DNA of 64,000 nucleotides from assembly GCF_022846255.1 (NCBI RefSeq), contig NZ_AP025682.1; one strand, given 5' to 3'. A program made the translations under genes and the position numbers. Below the pieces are notes generated by a model. It saw only the letters and a program-made list of their open reading frames with translations. It searched no databases and had not been told where the DNA came from. This document shows positions 7,560 through 45,102 of the stretch, one piece after another (within the stretch, counting starts at the first letter, position 1; each line of letters opens with the position of its first letter). This DNA is from Escherichia coli. Lineage in GTDB: Bacteria > Pseudomonadota > Gammaproteobacteria > Enterobacterales > Enterobacteriaceae.

Positions 7560-8513
7560 TTACAGCAGATCGCCGATCATTTTTTCCAGTTTTTCCTGGT
7601 CAACAGCAAACTTACGGATACCTTCCGCCAGTTTATCTACTGCCATTGGATCCTGGTTGTGCTGCCACAGGAACTCGGACTCAGTGATACGCGCCGGACG
7701 CGCTTTCACTTCACCAGTGTAAGACAGTTTACGTTCGATAGCCCCTTCGCTCTCCGCCAGCTCTTTCAGCAGTGCCGGTGCGATGGTCAGACGGTCGCAG
7801 CCTGCCAGTTCCAGAATTTCGCCGATGTTACGGAAGCTTGCGCCCATAACCACGGTTTCATAACCATGCTCTTTGTAGTACTGGTAGATTTCAGATACAG
7901 AAACCACGCCCGGATCTTCTGCCGGAGCGTACTCTTTCTTATCGGTATTCGCTTTGTACCAGTCAAGAATACGGCCAACAAACGGCGAGATCAGGAACAC
8001 GCCCGCTTCCGCACAAGCACGAGCCTGAGCGAAGGAGAACAGCAGGGTCAGGTTACAGTTGATGCCTTCTTTTTCCAGCTGTTCCGCAGCACGGATACCC
8101 TGCCAGGTAGAAGCCAGTTTGATCAGAATACGATCGTTGCTAATACCTGCATCGTTGTAGAGTTTGATCAGGCGTTTTGCTTTCGCAATTGACGCTTCGG
8201 TGTCATAGGAAAGACGCGCATCAACTTCAGTTGAGATACGGCCCGGAACCAGTTTCAGGATTTCCAGACCAATATTTACGGCCAGTTTGTCGGTCGCGTC
8301 CACGATCTGCTGCGCGCGATCGTTGCTCTGCTGTTTCGCCCAGGCGACAGCATCATCAATCAACTTACGGTATTCCGGAATCTGCGCTGCGTTAAGAATG
8401 AGAGAAGGGTTGGTTGTGGCATCCTGCGGTTGATACAGCTTCATTGCCGCGATGTCCCCAGTGTCGGCCACTACGGTGGTGTACTGACGAAGGGAGGTCA
8501 ATTTGTCCGTCAT
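7560..8513 (-). CDS. talB: Transaldolase B
   Basis: 317 aa starting [20 protein letters not shown]; ORF-track start trimmed to the internal Met. Confidence 0.95.
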
Positions 8514-8791
8514 GATAGTATTTCTCTTTAAACAGCTTGTTAGGGGGATGTAACCGGTCTGCCCTGATGATATCACGACGCAACGTCAGCGCAACCGCCG
8601 ACAAGACGGTTATCGCCAGGCGAGACTGTTTCGGATTTCTGACACTGCGTTGATATCGCCCGCCATTTTTATACAAAACCTCATGTATGCTACGCAGAAG
8701 TTATCAAGTACCTCGTAGCGTATATACTTCTTAAACAATTGGTAACGTTTACACAGGAAAGTCATCGCGACCGGCAATAAGAGGGATATGC

Positions 8792-10222
8792 ATGCCAGAT
8801 TTTTTCTCCTTTATTAACAGCGTCCTTTGGGGATCGGTAATGATTTACCTGCTCTTCGGCGCAGGTTGTTGGTTCACTTTTCGCACCGGATTTGTGCAGT
8901 TTCGCTACATCCGCCAGTTTGGCAAAAGTCTTAAAAATAGCATTCATCCACAGCCAGGCGGTTTAACCTCATTTCAGTCATTGTGTACCAGTCTTGCAGC
9001 GCGCGTGGGTAGCGGCAACCTGGCCGGCGTTGCGCTGGCAATTACCGCCGGTGGACCTGGAGCCGTCTTCTGGATGTGGGTTGCCGCATTTATCGGCATG
9101 GCGACCTCGTTTGCCGAATGTTCCCTCGCACAGCTTTATAAAGAACGTGATGCCAATGGGCAGTTTCGTGGCGGACCGGCATGGTATATGGCGCGCGGGC
9201 TGGGGATGCGCTGGATGGGCGTTCTGTTCGCCGTCTTTTTGCTCATCGCCTACGCCATAATTTTCAGCGGAGTTCAGGCGAACGCCGTTGCGCGAGCTCT
9301 GAGTTTTTCTTTTGATTTTCCCCCGCTGGTAACAGGTATTATTCTCGCTGTCTTTGCTCTGCTGGCGATCACTCGCGGTCTTCATGGCGTCGCCCGGCTC
9401 ATGCAGGGGTTTGTCCCGTTGATGGCGATAATCTGGGTACTGACCTGCCTGGTGATTTGCGTAATGAATATCGGGCAACTTCCCCACGTCATTTGGTCTA
9501 TTTTTGAGAGTGCTTTTGGCTGGCAGGAAGCTGCAGGCGGCGCGGCGGGATATACCTTAAGCCAGGCGATTACTAACGGTTTTCAGCGCAGTATGTTTTC
9601 CAATGAGGCGGGAATGGGGTCGACGCCAAACGCGGCAGCGGCAGCTGCGTCCTGGCCTCCGCATCCGGCAGCGCAAGGAATTGTCCAGATGATTGGCATT
9701 TTTATCGACACCCTGGTCATCTGCACGGCAAGCGCCATGCTGATATTACTGGCGGGTAACGGCACAACCTACATGCCGCTGGAAGGTATTCAGCTTATCC
9801 AGAAGGCGATGCGGGTGCTAATGGGTTCCTGGGGTGCGGAGTTTGTTACCCTCGTGGTTATTCTGTTTGCCTTCAGCTCCATCGTTGCCAACTACATTTA
9901 TGCCGAAAACAATCTCTTCTTTTTACGCCTGAACAACCCTAAAGCGATCTGGTGTCTGCGGATCTGCACCTTCGCAACGGTCATCGGCGGCACCTTGCTA
10001 AGTTTTCCGCTGATGTGGCAACTGGCAGATATCATTATGGCCTGCATGGCTATTACCAATTTGACCGCCATATTACTGCTCTCGCCTGTGGTTCATACCA
10101 TTGCCAGTGATTATCTACGCCAGCGTAAACTCGGCGTGCGCCCGGTGTTTGATCCGTTGCGTTATCCGGAGATCGGTCGCCAGCTTTCTCCAGACGCGTG
10201 GGATGATGTTTCGCAGGAGTAA
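8792..10222 (+). CDS. yaaJ: Sodium:alanine symporter family transporter YaaJ
   Basis: 476 aa polytopic membrane protein, syntenic with K-12. Confidence 0.9.
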   Translation: MPDFFSFINSVLWGSVMIYLLFGAGCWFTFRTGFVQFRYIRQFGKSLKNSIHPQPGGLTSFQSLCTSLAARVGSGNLAGVALAITAGGPGAVFWMWVAAFIGMATSFAECSLAQLYKERDANGQFRGGPAWYMARGLGMRWMGVLFAVFLLIAYAIIFSGVQANAVARALSFSFDFPPLVTGIILAVFALLAITRGLHGVARLMQGFVPLMAIIWVLTCLVICVMNIGQLPHVIWSIFESAFGWQEAAGGAAGYTLSQAITNGFQRSMFSNEAGMGSTPNAAAAAASWPPHPAAQGIVQMIGIFIDTLVICTASAMLILLAGNGTTYMPLEGIQLIQKAMRVLMGSWGAEFVTLVVILFAFSSIVANYIYAENNLFFLRLNNPKAIWCLRICTFATVIGGTLLSFPLMWQLADIIMACMAITNLTAILLLSPVVHTIASDYLRQRKLGVRPVFDPLRYPEIGRQLSPDAWDDVSQE

Positions 10223-10291
10223 TCACAACTATCGATCAACTCATTCTCTTTTTTTGCTAAAGTCGGCATAAATTTCCTGCAAGGACTGGAT

Positions 10292-11068
10292 ATGCTGATT
10301 CTTATTTCACCTGCGAAAACGCTTGATTACCAAAGCCCGTTGACCACCACGCGCTATACGCTGCCGGAGCTGTTAGACAACTCCCAGCAGCTGATCCATG
10401 AAGCGCGGAAACTGACGCCCCCGCAGATTAGCTCCCTGATGCGCATCAGCGACAAACTGGCGGGTATCAACGCCGCTCGCTTTCATGACTGGCAGCCAGA
10501 TTTCACACCGGAGAATGCCCGCCAGGCAATTCTGGCGTTTAAAGGTGATGTCTACACTGGCTTGCAGGCCGAAACCTTCAGCGAAGACGATTTCGATTTT
10601 GCCCAACAGCATTTGCGAATGCTTTCCGGCTTGTATGGCGTACTGCGCCCGCTCGATTTAATGCAGCCTTATCGTCTGGAAATGGGGATACGTCTTGAGA
10701 ATGCCCGAGGGAAAGATCTGTATCAATTCTGGGGAGATATCATCAACAACAAGCTGAACGAGGCGCTCGCAGCACAAGGCGATAATGTAGTGATAAATCT
10801 GGCGTCAGATGAGTATTTTAAATCGGTGAAGCCGAAGAAATTGAATGCCGAGATTATCAAACCAGTGTTCCTCGATGAGAAGAACGGCAAATTTAAGATA
10901 ATCAGCTTCTACGCTAAGAAAGCACGCGGTCTGATGAGTCGTTTCATTATTGAAAATCGGCTGACCAAACCAGAGCAACTGACTGGTTTTAATAGCGAAG
11001 GTTACTTCTTTGATGAAGCTTCCTCCAGCAATGGCGAACTGGTGTTTAAACGCTACGAGCAGCGTTAA
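10292..11068 (+). CDS. yaaA: Peroxide stress resistance protein YaaA (UPF0246)
   Basis: 258 aa starting [17 protein letters not shown]. Confidence 0.9.
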
Positions 11069-39492: not shown

Positions 39493-40272
39493 TTAGTAGC
39501 TGCTGGCGCTCTTACCGTCGCCGTGGCCCAGAGCTTTCAGCAGGCTTGCCAGCAAGCTGGAAGCACCAAAGCGGTAGTGACGCGCATCAGCCCAGTCAGC
39601 ACCGAACAGTTCATCTGCAATGGCGAGATATTTCTGCGCATCTTCCGCAGTACGCACGCCGCCCGCCGGTTTGAAACCAACGGTTTTTTCTACGCCCATA
39701 TCGCGGATCACTTCCATCATGATGCGCGCGCTTTCCGGCGTCGCATTCACAGCCACTTTACCGGTAGAGGTTTTGATGAAGTCAGCACCCGCTTTGATGG
39801 AGATTTCAGACGCTTTACGGATCAGCGCTTCGTCTTTCAGTTCGCCGGTTTCAATAATCACTTTCAGCAGTACGTTCGCCGCAGCGCAAGCCTCTTTACA
39901 GGCTTTCACCAGGTCAAAACCAACCTGCTCGTTACCCGCCATCAGCGCGCGGTACGGGAACACCACGTCAACTTCATCGGCACCGTAGGCGATTGCCGCA
40001 CGGGTTTCTGCCAGCGCAATGTCGATGTCGTCGTTACCGTGTGGGAAGTTAGTTACCGTAGCGATACGGATTTCCGGGGTGCCCTGCTCTTTCAGAGTTT
40101 TGCGAGCAATCGGGATAAAGCGAGGATAGATACAGATAGCGGCGGTATTGCCGACCGGAGTTTTGGCCTGATGACACAGGGCGATCACTTTCTCATCGGT
40201 GTCGTCGTCATTCAGGGTGGTCAGGTCCATCAATTTCAGTGCACGCAGGCTGCTTGCTTTCAGATCAGTCAT
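39493..40272 (-). CDS. deoC: Deoxyribose-phosphate aldolase DeoC
   Basis: 259 aa starting [24 protein letters not shown]. Confidence 0.95.
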
Positions 40273-40529
40273 TTCATTCTCCTGGCTTGTCGCCAATAAA
40301 ATTCACCTTGCGAGTTTGTTAGTATTCTAACATCTACTCCGCAACACACTTCGATGTACATCACAATTAAGGAAATCTACTTACAAGTTTGCATCACTGT
40401 AATGCGATCTGGTTCAAATAATTCACTTTCAAATGAATGCGTCAGTGGTGGCAAACGTATCAGGATCAAAGTGAACATCACGAAACTTCTTACAATGGCG
40501 CATCACCTTCGGCATAAAAGGAAAAGAAG

Positions 40530-42080
40530 ATGCCCACTTCTCATGAAAATGCACTGCAACAACGTTGCCAGCAAATTGTCACCAGCCCGGTACTTAGCCC
40601 GGAGCAGAAGCGCCATTTTCTGGCACTGGAAGCAGAAAATAATCTGCCTTACCCACAGCTGCCTGCCGAAGCCCGCCGCGCGCTGGATGAGGGGGTAATC
40701 TGCGATATGTTTGAAGGTCATGCGCCGTACAAACCGCGCTATGTCTTACCCGATTACGCCCGTTTTCTGGCGCACGGTTCCGAATGGCTGGAGCTGGAAG
40801 GCGCGAAAGACCTTGATGACGCACTCTCTCTGCTGACCATTCTTTACCACCATGTACCGTCGGTCACATCGATGCCGGTCTACCTGGGGCAACTGGATGC
40901 GTTGTTGCAACCGTATGTTAGAATTATAACACAAGACGAGATCGATATTCGAATAAAACGTTTCTGGCGTTACCTCGACAGAACCCTGCCAGACGCCTTT
41001 ATGCATGCCAATATCGGCCCGTCTGATTCGCCCATTACCCGTGCGATATTACGTGCAGACGCAGAGCTGAAGCAGGTTTCACCGAACCTGACCTTTATCT
41101 ACGATCCTGATATCACCCCTGATGACCTGCTGCTGGAAGTGGCGAAAAACATCTGTGAATGTAGCAAACCGCACATCGCCAACGGTCCGGTGCATGATAA
41201 AATTTTCACAAAGGGGGGCTACGGGATTGTGAGCTGTTACAACTCACTGCCGCTGGCGGGTGGTGGCAGCACGCTGGTACGCCTAAACCTGAAAGCCATT
41301 GCCGAGCGCAGTGAATCGCTGGAGGACTTCTTTACGCGCACTCTACCGCACTACTGCCAACAGCAGATCGCCATCATCGATGCGCGGTGTGAATTCCTCT
41401 ATCAACAATCACACTTCTTTGAGAATAGCTTCCTGGTGAAAGAAGGGCTGATTAACCCTGAACGTTTTGTGCCGATGTTTGGCATGTATGGGCTGGCGGA
41501 AGCGGTTAACTTGCTGTGTGAAAAAGAAGGGATTGCCGCACGCTACGGTAAAGAGGCCGCCGCAAATGAAGTGGGTTATCGCATTAGCGCGCAACTGGCG
41601 GAGTTTGTCGCCAATACCCCCGTGAAATATGGCTGGCAAAAACGCGCCATGTTACACGCACAGTCGGGGATAAGTTCCGATATCGGCACCACGCCGGGCG
41701 CGCGTTTGCCGTATGGTGATGAGCCAGATCCGATTACCCATCTGCAAACTGTCGCCCCGCATCATGCTTATTATTATTCCGGCATCAGCGACATTCTGAC
41801 GCTCGACGAAACCATCAAACGTAATCCGCAGGCGCTGGTACAGCTTTGCCTCGGTGCCTTTAAAGCCGGAATGCGTGAATTTACCGCCAATGTCAGCGGT
41901 AACGATCTGGTTCGCGTTACCGGTTATATGGTGCGTTTGTCGGATTTAGAAAAATATCGCGCCGAAGGTTCACGCACCAACACTACCTGGCTGGGAGAAG
42001 AAGCCGCACGCAACACTCGTATTCTGGAACGCCAGCCGCGCGTGATAAGCCATGAACAGCAGATGCGCTTTAGTCAGTAA
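40530..42080 (+). CDS. yjjI: Glycine-radical-enzyme-like protein YjjI (DUF3029), unknown substrate
   Basis: 516 aa ORF, syntenic with K-12 yjjI; followed by an overlapping radical-SAM activase gene. Confidence 0.9.
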
Positions 42081-42915
42081 GATTATCCCCTTCTCTTGCG
42101 TTGACGGGCCAGGCAGTCGTCTGGCTCTGTTTTTGCAGGGCTGCAATCTGCGCTGCAAAAACTGTCACAATCCGTGGACGATGGGGCGCTGTAATGATTG
42201 CGGAGAGTGCGTGCCGCAGTGTCCGCATCAGGCGTTGCAGATTGTCGACGGCAAAGTGGCGTGGAGCGCGGCTGTCTGCGAGCAATGTGATACCTGCCTG
42301 AAGATGTGTCCGCAACATGCTACGCCAATGGCGCAATCCATGAGCGTGGACGAGGTGCTTAACCATGTCCGCAAAGCGGTTCTGTTTATTGAAGGGATAA
42401 CGGTAAGCGGCGGCGAAGCCACGACCCAGTTGCCGTTTGTGGTGGCGCTGTTTACTGCCATCAAAAACGATCCGCAACTGTGCCATCTCACCTGCCTCGT
42501 GGACAGTAACGGCATGTTGAGCGAAACCGGCTGGGAAAAATTGCTCCCGGTGTGTGACGGCGCAATGCTCGATCTCAAAGCGTGGGGGAGCGAATGTCAT
42601 CAGCAATTAACCGGACGCGATAATCAGCAGATCAAGCGCAGCATCTGTTTGCTGGCAGAGCGCGGTAAGCTGGCGGAACTGCGTTTGCTGGTAATCCCTG
42701 GCCAGGTGGATTATTTGCAACACATCGAAGAACTGGCGGCGTTAATCAAGGGACTTGGCGATGTTCCGGTACGCCTGAACGCGTTTCATGCCCACGGCGT
42801 GTATGGCGAGGCGCAAAGCTGGCCGAGTGCCACGCCGGAGGATGTGGAACAACTGGCTGATGCGTTATGGGAGCGCGGGGTGAGCCGGTTAATATTTCCG
42901 GCGCTATATTTGTGA
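42052..42915 (+). CDS. yjjW: Glycyl-radical enzyme activating protein YjjW (radical SAM)
   Basis: 287 aa with cysteine clusters CxxxCxxC and CxxCxxCxxxC; overlaps the yjjI 3' end by 29 nt. Confidence 0.9.
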
Positions 42916-43907
<992 letters not shown>

Positions 43908-43911
<4 letters not shown>

Positions 43912-44981
43912 GCCAGATCCTCATTGTTAAATGTCGGGTCGTTCGCCTGCGGAGCGTCGCTCACTTCGGCAACCAGCGTATCGTTGGCGACTGGCGCAGG
44001 CGGAATAACGATCGACTCCGGCGTCACCACCGGCACCAGATGGCGGCTCAGCGGCGCTTTTTCAGTCAATAATTTACCGACCGTTGCCAGAAAATAACGC
44101 CCGCATAAACGTCCAAGTTTATAGTCTTCACGCAGCGCCGGAATCCGACTGCCGAGCGCGATACTATGCAATGGCTTCGGCGGATAAATTTCGAATATCC
44201 GCAGCTGGCCCGGTGGTTTCTCAATAAATTGCTGAATCTCACGATAGCTTGTTTCATGATGCTGCACCAGATTGACCAGCGGCTGCAGGCTACTGTCACC
44301 CAGCCAGCGTTCCATGCGTTTGAACCACTGCGGCGTGTAGTACATTTGTGACGGCACAGTGCGGATGACGACCAACGTTTTTGCTCCCTGCCTTGCCGCC
44401 TCTTTAACCGGGATCGCATCACTGATCCCACCATCCAGGTAGTTAATACCTTCCAGCGACACTCCGCTACGATAAAAGCCAGGTATCGCACTGGAGGCGC
44501 GAATCACATCCAGCCAGTTTTGTTTAGTTGGCAAAAAGTAATTCGGCGCATAGTCATCCTGACGACAGGCGCACATATAAAACGATTTGCCGCTGTCAAA
44601 TAACCGCGCTGCGGTATCCATTTGCAACGGCATCTGGCTTGCGGTGGCCTCCACCAGCCAATCGAGATCGATAAGATTTCCTCCACGGACAAAGCGCAAT
44701 GGATCGAAAAATTCGCGTTTTGTGGTGTAACGCATGATGACTTTGCGCGCGTAACCGGGCTGATTGCAGATATACGCCGAGAGGTTCTGCGCCCCGGCAG
44801 ATGTGCCGAGATAAAGATCGAAAGGATTAAACTGCGCGCGCATAAACTCATCCAGCACGCCAGCCGTGAAAATTCCACGTTGTCCGCCGCCTTCGCACAC
44901 CAGAGCAATCCGTCCAGGCTGGAACGGCCTTAGCGACAACGGCGCAATATTACCAAGCGTTACAGGTATTCGCTGCCCCAC
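43908..44981 (-). CDS. yjjU: Patatin-like phospholipase YjjU
   Basis: 357 aa with the GGGxRG and GTSAG patatin motifs; probable GTG start. Confidence 0.85.
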
Positions 44982-45102
44982 CTCTGCCTTCCTGTTTTTG
45001 TTGTGAAAGAATGACAAAGTAACGCAATTTATTATTCGCTAAAACCGCAAAAGCCAGTCCGCTGGACTGGCTTTGGATAAAATTTTCTTAATGGTCTGAA
45101 AT

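Follow-up and report, generated by a model that had tools for sequence, protein, structure and literature searches.

Which reaction is carried out by the glycyl radical enzyme (GRE) pair that yjjI and yjjW encode, directly beside the deo nucleoside catabolism operon of Escherichia coli? The question is taken up here for a stretch of 64,000 nucleotides of an E. coli chromosome (contig NZ_AP025682.1), referred to below as the window. A first-pass annotation, made from the letters of the window, had described a 516-aa GRE-like protein followed by its radical-SAM (S-adenosylmethionine) activase with an overlap of 29 nt, and both open reading frames (ORFs) lie exactly at those positions:

40530 to 42080, + strand: yjjI coding sequence (516 aa plus stop, ATG start), a GRE of the YjjI family by its ORF, PF11230 and TIGR04040.
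42052 to 42915, + strand: yjjW coding sequence (287 aa plus stop, ATG start), the dedicated radical-SAM activase by its ORF, TIGR04041 and the Radical_SAM and Fer4 domains.

The same annotation had called the substrate uncharacterised even in K-12, which is still the case: the NCBIfam model is of the kind "hypoth_equivalog", the K-12 RefSeq names are "DUF3029 domain-containing protein YjjI" and "putative glycyl-radical enzyme activating enzyme YjjW", and no published substrate or phenotype was found in the searchable literature, paywalled papers being outside its reach. The genes, their family models and their orphan status are thus already known. What was not met in that literature, and is therefore new here, is a tie of the pair to nucleoside operons across phyla, together with a pentose-phosphate hypothesis for its substrate. 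The account towards which we lean, with a little more confidence than doubt, is that of an anaerobic yjjI-yjjW operon acting on a pentose derived from nucleosides.

Family, motifs and predicted fold

That YjjI and YjjW form a GRE and activase pair is practically certain. YjjI matches PF11230 over the whole profile (positions 1-485 of 485; E 3.9e-220, 731.7 bits against a cut-off of 23) and TIGR04040 with 786.5 bits against a curated cut-off of 498.3, and no further family model. A Pfam search of the window protein at E <= 0.01 returned PF11230 alone, without PF02901, PF01228 or PF13597; weak PF02901 matches are recorded in some relatives only, and those to PF13597 (NRDD) are faint, weak or unmarked in a few of them. 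Conservation was judged on an alignment of 24 sequences with 30-89% identity, in which only 14 columns are invariant, C236, R462 and G465 among them. The glycyl radical motif, left by the first-pass annotation to be sought on alignment, is present as RVTGY. The catalytic elements of both proteins are the following:

41232 to 41243, + strand: codons of the Cys loop S235-C236-Y237-N238, the thiyl radical site; C236 is invariant, and the loop aligns with those of pyruvate formate-lyase (PFL) and PflD.
41913 to 41927, + strand: codons of the glycyl radical motif R462-V-T-G465-Y466; R462 and G465 are invariant, and the motif aligns with RVSGY of PFL.
42142 to 42165, + strand: codons of the YjjW radical-SAM cluster motif C31-x3-C35-x2-C38, from the Cys positions and a Radical_SAM/Fer4_12 match.
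42190 to 42309, + strand: ferredoxin-like insert of YjjW with two CxxCxxCxxxC motifs (C47-C57 and C76-C86), a Fer4_9/Fer4_7 dicluster over residues 46-90.

Across the family the Cys loop reads V/A-S-C-Y-N...GGG, S235 being nearly invariant and N238 conserved in at least 90% of the 24 sequences. C236 is the sole invariant cysteine among them, and C58 becomes H, Y or D in several members. The last cysteine of YjjI is C440 and none lies beyond it, hence there is no C-terminal zinc ribbon; neither an ATP-cone nor a specificity region was found in the Pfam search.

The AlphaFold2 model of YjjI, built with 48 sequences, reaches a predicted local distance difference test score (pLDDT) of 91.9 and a predicted template modelling score of 0.91, and adopts the barrel fold of GREs and ribonucleotide reductases (RNRs), with the ten-stranded beta/alpha barrel of the GRE superfamily; the tail, residues 508-516, falls below a pLDDT of 50 and is disordered in the model. 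Foldseek ranked class III RNRs first (E 1e-18). A search of the PDB with the single sequence gave one chance match only (E 1.1), and the family profile weakly reaches PFL, YbiW and NrdD there, PFL at E 2.5e-4. The profile alignment brings the Cys and Gly loops into register with those of PFL, setting S235-C236 opposite C418-C419 (C236 = C419), and hhalign sets S-C-Y-N (235-238) opposite G-C-V-E of PflD, so that N238 stands where the catalytic Glu does. The structure prediction and the comparison with PFL-type enzymes that had been proposed as checks of the pair thus bear out its assignment.

YjjI nevertheless lacks the hallmarks of three known classes. The G-C-V-E-(P) loop of the GRE 1,2-eliminases (glycerol/propanediol dehydratase, CutC, HypD, IslA, PflD/YbiW) is missing, although a functional stand-in for the Glu, such as the invariant E305, is conceivable; the four-cysteine Zn site, the second cysteine and the PF13597 match of NrdD are absent, as are the adjacent cysteines and the PF02901 and PF01228 matches of PFL and TdcE. 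Motifs, fold and these absences together argue for a true, minimal GRE on its own branch.

The closest comparison within E. coli would be with PflD-PflC and YbiW-YbiY, C-O lyases of 1,5-anhydrohexitol 6-phosphates, in which PflD and YbiW open the ring of their substrates by radical elimination to yield 1-deoxyfructose 6-phosphate (PMC12441222). They share with YjjI-YjjW the barrel, the Gly loop, the Cys loop and a dedicated activase with a ferredoxin insert. However, YjjI has about 16% identity to them and is shorter by some 250 residues, with 516 aa against 765, its S-C-Y-N lacks the catalytic Glu of the G-C-V-E of PflD, it goes undetected by the PFL-like Pfam models, and its neighbours are nucleoside genes, whereas theirs is a phosphotransferase system.

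YjjW is no less clearly assigned. It scores 397.5 bits against TIGR04041 (cut-off 250.2) and matches every characterised GRE activase family too, more weakly than TIGR04041; Pfam finds the Radical_SAM and Fer4 domains, and its translation holds a DGPGSR loop and VSGGEAT, the GGE motif for SAM. With its dicluster insert, it is an activase of the PflC/CutD type and not of the short NrdG type.

Gene neighbourhoods across the family

The YjjI family is small: a set of 1.84 billion proteins holds 540 representatives of it at 50% identity (E <= 1e-3), about 25 of them full length, and a scan of 100,044 genomes found relatives in at least 569 species. Two groups can be distinguished: the first comprises Enterobacterales, Vibrionaceae and Orbales, and the second, about 35-40% identical to E. 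coli YjjI, Pasteurellaceae, Erysipelotrichaceae and Clostridia. In addition, a 172-kb contig (L085) encodes at 8001-10364 a YjjI-activase pair with 40% identity to E. coli YjjI, and since this contig carries genes of the eIF-1A, NMD3, RIO1 and aIF2 types, the family reaches the Archaea. It therefore spans Proteobacteria, Firmicutes and at least one archaeon.

To describe the neighbourhoods, 893 neighbouring ORFs around 87 distant homologues were clustered without prior labels, and the homologues were grouped at 70% identity into 38 lineages. No neighbour is commoner than the activase, which occurs in 32 of the 38 and always on the strand of YjjI. After it, the most recurrent families are the components of PnrA/Bmp-type ABC transporters: Bmp-type permeases in 10 lineages (22 of 22 genes on the YjjI strand), the Bmp binding protein in nine (14 of 14) and the Bmp-type ABC ATPase in nine (10 of 10). 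PfkB kinases occur near YjjI in five lineages, and further recurring neighbours are PNP, the IU-nucleoside hydrolase (IUNH), NupC, Cdd and the phosphopentomutase DeoB. Altogether, a nucleoside-specific family is found in 11 of the 27 lineages that have at least eight genes of context.

In the Enterobacteriaceae, Hafnia and Edwardsiella loci, deoCABD is always divergent from yjjI, an adjacency that by itself could be plain synteny. The gene sets vary elsewhere. In Gilliamella (Orbales), a co-directional series of PNP_UDP_1, a NupG-type nucleoside:H+ symporter, Add, Cdd and Pdp ends in YjjI and YjjW. Among the more distant loci, one operon (L179) runs YjjI, activase, ABC ATPase, two permeases, Cdd and DeoB; another (L125) runs Bmp, YjjI, activase, ABC ATPase and two permeases, followed by a pseudouridine-kinase-like gene and PsuG (Indigoidine_A, E 9e-129). 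A third (L163) places a ribokinase (TIGR02152, 330 bits, above cut-off) before YjjI and the activase, with IUNH nearby, and a fourth (L116), whose YjjI is 94.5% identical to that of Aggregatibacter, continues the pair with NupC and DeoD (400 bits). In L093 and L132, IUNH, PfkB and PNP lie upstream of the pair, and Bmp-ABC, PNP and Cdd downstream.

The enzymes that accompany YjjI cover purines, pyrimidines and pseudouridine. Because these partners are not specific to one base, the product that they share would be the pentose, and they offer several routes to ribose 5-phosphate: from ribose via ribokinase, from ribose 1-phosphate via DeoB, and from pseudouridine monophosphate via PsuG.

Some loci depart from these patterns. 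In four of them (L104, L105, L108 and L109; about 87% identical to the YjjI of Actinobacillus equuli), unrelated genes on the opposite strand follow YjjI and no activase is adjacent, so the activase could be lost or relocated; their close relatives L102, L116 and L120 keep YjjI, activase and NupC. In L098 (1264-2805), translation of the gene for the homologue P0146 with table 11 fails to give the protein on record, possibly because the organism uses an alternative genetic code; the gene adjoins a BPD_transp_2 permease and a peptidyl-tRNA hydrolase and has no activase beside it. The presence of an amidohydrolase and of an M20 peptidase in two operons had raised the idea of YjjI as a step of reductive pyrimidine degradation, which was discarded, as NCBIfam assigns them to TRZ/ATZ-type deaminases and ArgE/DapE deacylases.

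Substrate, chemistry and competing explanations

A functional link of YjjI to nucleoside or pentose catabolism is probable. That a pentose phosphate is the actual substrate is a more tentative proposal, which we hold possible rather than probable; the candidates would be, most likely, ribose 5-phosphate, or else ribose 1-phosphate or the ribosyl ring of a nucleoside. FNR switches on the two-gene operon without oxygen, as the literature shows. YjjW is expected to use S-adenosylmethionine to take a hydrogen from G465 in the RVTGY loop, and the stored radical would pass to C236 as a thiyl, which would then abstract a hydrogen from the substrate, a sequence of steps that is strongly supported. The chemistry is likely to be an oxygen-sensitive radical 1,2-elimination, that is, C-O cleavage or dehydration of the nucleoside-derived pentose, as in the two nearest structural relatives, PflD/YbiW and class III RNR; NrdD removes the 2'-OH of a ribosyl ring. 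The invariant residues E305, H376, R251, R392 and K213 are candidates for acid/base and redox roles, and a redox-neutral elimination seems more likely for YjjI than a reduction.

In its most specific form, which is rather doubtful, YjjI would be a new oxygen-independent radical step that converts ribose 5-phosphate, ribose 1-phosphate or the ribosyl ring into a deoxy-keto sugar phosphate, for further conversion by a reductase or an aldolase of the DeoC type. The arrangement of yjjI and deo in the enterobacteria would make sense if the product fed DeoC, although this is speculation.

Several points weigh against a nucleoside-derived pentose. The statistics are weakened by the roughly two thirds of lineages in which the pair stands by itself or has unrelated genes around it: it has no nucleoside neighbours in the archaeal L085, Anaerovirgula (L180), Vibrionaceae, Proteus and Providencia, and the contexts of P0125, P0126, P0127, P0129, P0131, P0121, P0122, P0139 and P0337 gave no recurring partner except the activase. 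The metagenomic set comprises the 80 loci that best match one distant clade; it is not random, carries no taxonomy and was read with a crude ORF finder, and the contexts in Enterobacterales, Orbales and Pasteurellales could partly share ancestry. Not all binding proteins of the Bmp family bind nucleosides. The chemistry cannot be copied from the eliminases or from NrdD, because N238 replaces the Glu and the second cysteine is missing, and the physiological need is unclear, since E. coli handles ribose 5-phosphate without radical chemistry. On the other hand, a pair that stands alone in many lineages is to be expected if its substrate is a central metabolite and not an imported compound.

Among the other explanations, the one that survives best, while still unlikely, is that the nucleoside neighbourhood is coincidental or merely regulatory and that the substrate lies elsewhere, for instance in an anaerobic nitrate or nitrogen compound or a nucleobase. 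It agrees with the absence of nucleoside neighbours from most lineages and with the co-expression of yjjI with anaerobic respiration genes; in E. coli and Salmonella, yjjI biclusters with narG and FNR/Nar genes, which the authors read as "nitrogen metabolism" (PMC3228777). However, any oxygen-sensitive enzyme would be expected to be co-expressed with the FNR regulon, which makes this uninformative on the substrate, and the published guess of "nitrogen assimilation", which draws on FNR-type co-expression only, was set aside. The nucleoside association, moreover, recurs in separate clades with varied gene sets and orders, always on the same strand, and with partner enzymes that are not specific to one base, while the M20 and amidohydrolase genes suspected of acting on the pyrimidine ring have no such functions in NCBIfam.

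Less likely again is that YjjI acts in the manner of an RNR on an intact nucleoside or nucleotide, removing or reducing the 2'-hydroxyl to give a deoxy- or keto-nucleoside, whose products would feed DeoA/DeoD, DeoB, DeoC or deoxynucleoside salvage. NrdD resembles YjjI in its similar size, its self-contained two-gene cassette and its anaerobic character, and its ribosyl substrate would fit the nucleoside context. In favour of this reading, several family members have the faint NRDD matches mentioned above, nucleoside transporters belonging to three distinct families are found clustered with the pair, and in L125 the pair separates the gene for the transporter's binding protein from that for its ATPase. 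Against it, YjjI has only 13-17% identity to NrdD, lacks the C-terminal Zn-ribbon cysteines, C440 being the last, as well as the ATP-cone/allosteric or specificity region, and has no conserved second active-site cysteine, C58 being variable; stand-alone cassettes without a transporter would be less expected for an imported nucleoside than for a central metabolite.

Old annotations ("pflB homologue", "formate acetyltransferase") would make of YjjI a pyruvate or 2-ketoacid formate-lyase-type enzyme, which is very improbable. PflB-PflA does resemble it in its equivalent Gly loop (RVSGY for RVTGY), in the alignment of the Cys loops, over which the weak profile match to PFL extends, and in its activation by FNR, and an old EcoGene note, as cited in PMC3228777, takes this side. 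Nevertheless, PFL chemistry requires two adjacent cysteines where YjjI has the single one of S235-C236, the window protein has no PFL-like or Gly_radical Pfam match at the threshold used, and it has 12-17% identity to PFL and is about 240 residues shorter. Equally improbable is a decaying or silent relic without current function in E. coli, which the lack of a reported phenotype or activity in the searchable literature would suit, given that 5422 of the 5426 complete E. coli genomes retain the pair over 80% or more of its length, that its catalytic motifs are intact and invariant over deep divergence, and that it is transcribed and FNR-activated with a conserved overlap geometry.

Expression, deo operators and probable coupling of the two genes

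The remark of the first-pass annotation that the pair sits beside deo holds true, with deoC (39493-40272, - strand), of the deoCABD operon, as the divergent neighbour at 257 bp from the yjjI ATG. It carries more weight than was implied there, because the deo regulatory region extends into the yjjI ORF and nucleoside genes recur in unrelated lineages. The control elements are these:

40456 to 40496, + strand: putative FNR-dependent yjjI promoter, with the FNR-like box CGTATcaggATCAA at 40456-40469 and a -10 element TACAAT at 40491-40496.
40518 to 40522, + strand: yjjI Shine-Dalgarno sequence AAGGA, its GGA core conserved in 13 genera.
40317 to 40332, no strand assigned: DeoR operator O2 at deoP2, in the yjjI-deoC intergenic region, TGTTAGTATTCTAACA, with one mismatch to the palindrome and conserved across genera.
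40350 to 40418, no strand assigned: deoP2 sites CRP-1 (40350-40365) and CRP-2 (40403-40418), 53 bp apart, from pattern matches and conserved blocks.
40916 to 40931, no strand assigned: DeoR operator O1, TGTTAGAATTATAACA, with the deoP1 -10 element (TATAAT, - strand, 40923-40928), within yjjI codons 129-134.
41195 to 41210, no strand assigned: candidate DeoR operator OE inside yjjI, TGATAAAATTTTCACA, 279 bp from O1.
42052 to 42080, + strand: 29-nt overlap of the yjjI 3' end with the yjjW 5' end, from which coupling is inferred.

Direct activation of yjjI by FNR has been reported from a chromatin immunoprecipitation (ChIP) peak and FNR-dependent anaerobic expression, the peak lying at 4,615,181 in older MG1655 coordinates, about 93 bp upstream of the yjjI ATG or near window position 40437 (PMC3688515). 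The gene is also among the FNR-activated genes of PMC2634741, it is co-expressed with anaerobic respiration genes, and both yjjI and yjjW are anaerobically induced in Yersinia intermedia (PMC3792023). As a promoter footprint, the intergenic sequences between deoC and yjjI of 13 genera were aligned, and two blocks on the yjjI side proved invariant: GGATCAA (40463-40469) and, 21 nt further on, TACAAT (40491-40496), of which the -10 positions T-A-x-A-x-T are invariant. In the FNR-like box the right half-site alone is conserved. No consensus FNR box (TTGATnnnnATCAA, up to two mismatches) was found near the yjjI promoter, and a generic sigma-70 scan found no promoter upstream of yjjI. The yjjI promoter would therefore appear to be of the class II FNR type with one good half-site. 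Two other candidates were rejected, namely an intergenic match to the FNR consensus at 40351-40364, which is the deoP2 CRP-1 site, and a conserved TTCAA block taken for an FNR half-site, which belongs to deoP2 CRP-2.

Both CRP sites are placed between deoP2 and the yjjI promoter, and a CRP ChIP site, TGTGATGTATATCGAA, has been reported from this intergenic region (PMC4287617). The centre of CRP-2 lies about 92 bp before the transcription start predicted for yjjI, near 40503, which mirrors its -93.5 position at deoP2, so that one CRP (and CytR) site could serve both divergent promoters. A second motif, TGTACCGTCGGTCACA (40853-40868, inside yjjI), has one mismatch to an intragenic CRP ChIP-seq site reported for enterotoxigenic E. 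coli H10407, and is located downstream of deoP1 on the deo transcript.

O1 lies exactly 599 bp from O2. The third operator-like site, at 41195-41210, we take as a candidate OE from the published deo operator spacing, with which the O2-O1-OE spacings agree. Its sequence, TGATAAAATTTTCACA, is identical at the same position in most Enterobacteriaceae genera, and the site as such is conserved across the family. O1 is conserved in Enterobacteriaceae, Hafnia and Edwardsiella, and both O1 and OE are absent from Proteus, Providencia and Gilliamella, genera without a divergent deo operon beside yjjI. At these two sites, the DNA of yjjI would thus both encode protein and bind a repressor. The yjjI promoter, lying between O2 and O1, would thus be enclosed by the DeoR loop through which the divergent deo operon is controlled, and transcripts from deoP1 would be antisense to yjjI over its first ~390 nt and across its promoter.

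One base of O1 differs in the window. At 40926 (position 11 of O1, codon 133 of yjjI), the window has TGTTAGAATTATAACA where other genera have the perfect palindrome TGTTAGAATTCTAACA, which the K-12 codon for L133 (CTA) implies as well; the change makes YjjI L133I and turns the deoP1 -10 element (- strand) from TAGAAT into the consensus TATAAT.

The start of yjjW is forced, because an in-frame stop ends at 42048 and the ATG at 42052 is the first start codon after it; the alternative TTG at 42133 would cut off the conserved N-terminus. This ATG falls within the codons for Ser-His-Glu at the tail of YjjI, and no Shine-Dalgarno sequence was found upstream of it (GCGTGATAAGCCATG). Of 79 species-level loci, taken from the genome scan mentioned above, 51 have an overlap of 29 nt and 23 one of 26 nt, together 74, ranging from Escherichia through Proteus and Providencia to Gilliamella. 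The five loci that do not share it are Phytobacter diazotrophicus, Kosakonia sp. S29, two Aliivibrio and one irregular Kluyvera locus. In the first two (L035 and L055, about 9566-9657), an insertion of 80-90 nt lies between yjjI and yjjW and provides the latter with AAGGAG, a strong ribosome-binding site, whereas the Aliivibrio gaps measure 44-48 nt. In Photobacterium, the computed yjjW start falls on a non-start codon, and more distant lineages have yjjI/activase overlaps of 4-14 nt or short gaps.

Translational coupling, which the first-pass annotation had read from the overlap, is strongly suggested by the missing Shine-Dalgarno sequence together with the conserved overlap, and is a well-supported inference from sequence. 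Since K-12 pflD and pflC (L181, 5259-5293) overlap by 35 nt, a long overlap of GRE and activase is not unique to yjjIW, and such overlaps may be a recurring way to couple the synthesis of an activase to that of its enzyme.

As regards the surroundings, at least 80% of 40200-43200 is held by 5422 of the 5426 complete E. coli genomes, with matches annotated as yjjI, yjjW, deoC and yjjV. The window YjjI is identical to K-12 b4380 at 511 of 516 residues (99%), and the K-12 pair has the same 29-nt overlap. Between yjjW and the convergent yjjV, two tandem REP/BIME units (repetitive extragenic palindromes/bacterial interspersed mosaic elements) of about 100 bp each occupy 42919-43137. Each matches Rfam naRNA4 (RF02564; 79 and 76 bits, - strand), an Rfam scan of 39500-43500 found nothing beyond these REP-derived matches, and it is because of these units that the E. 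coli search gave about 38 matching places per genome. In K-12, the spacer between yjjW and yjjV is about 200 bp longer than in the window. Further on, yjjV (a TatD-like metal-dependent hydrolase) and yjjU (patatin-like), at 43132-45017, are convergent and syntenic with yjjIW throughout Enterobacteriaceae. A single database protein of 574 aa (P0004), 99% identical to YjjI and found on a 2.9-kb contig, joins PF11230 to a DeoC domain (PF01791); this fusion probably arose as an artefact, in assembly or gene calling, where yjjI and deoC diverge.

If true, the conversion of a nucleoside-derived pentose by YjjI would join ribonucleoside breakdown to the deoxyribose branch and give a function to a K-12 GRE that has none, and its interleaving with the DeoR- and CRP-controlled deo promoters would be a regulatory device that couples deo and yjjI. 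Should the pentose hypothesis be right, nucleoside carbon would also have a route not described before, and the minimal GRE scaffold a reaction of a new type. Radical enzymes of the gut already account for the use of choline, hydroxyproline, sulfonates and anhydro-sugars. YjjI and YjjW occur in essentially every E. coli genome, and to know their reaction would close a gap in what is understood of how gut bacteria live anaerobically. The neighbourhood evidence trims what was an open-ended hunt for the substrate to about a dozen nucleoside-derived compounds.

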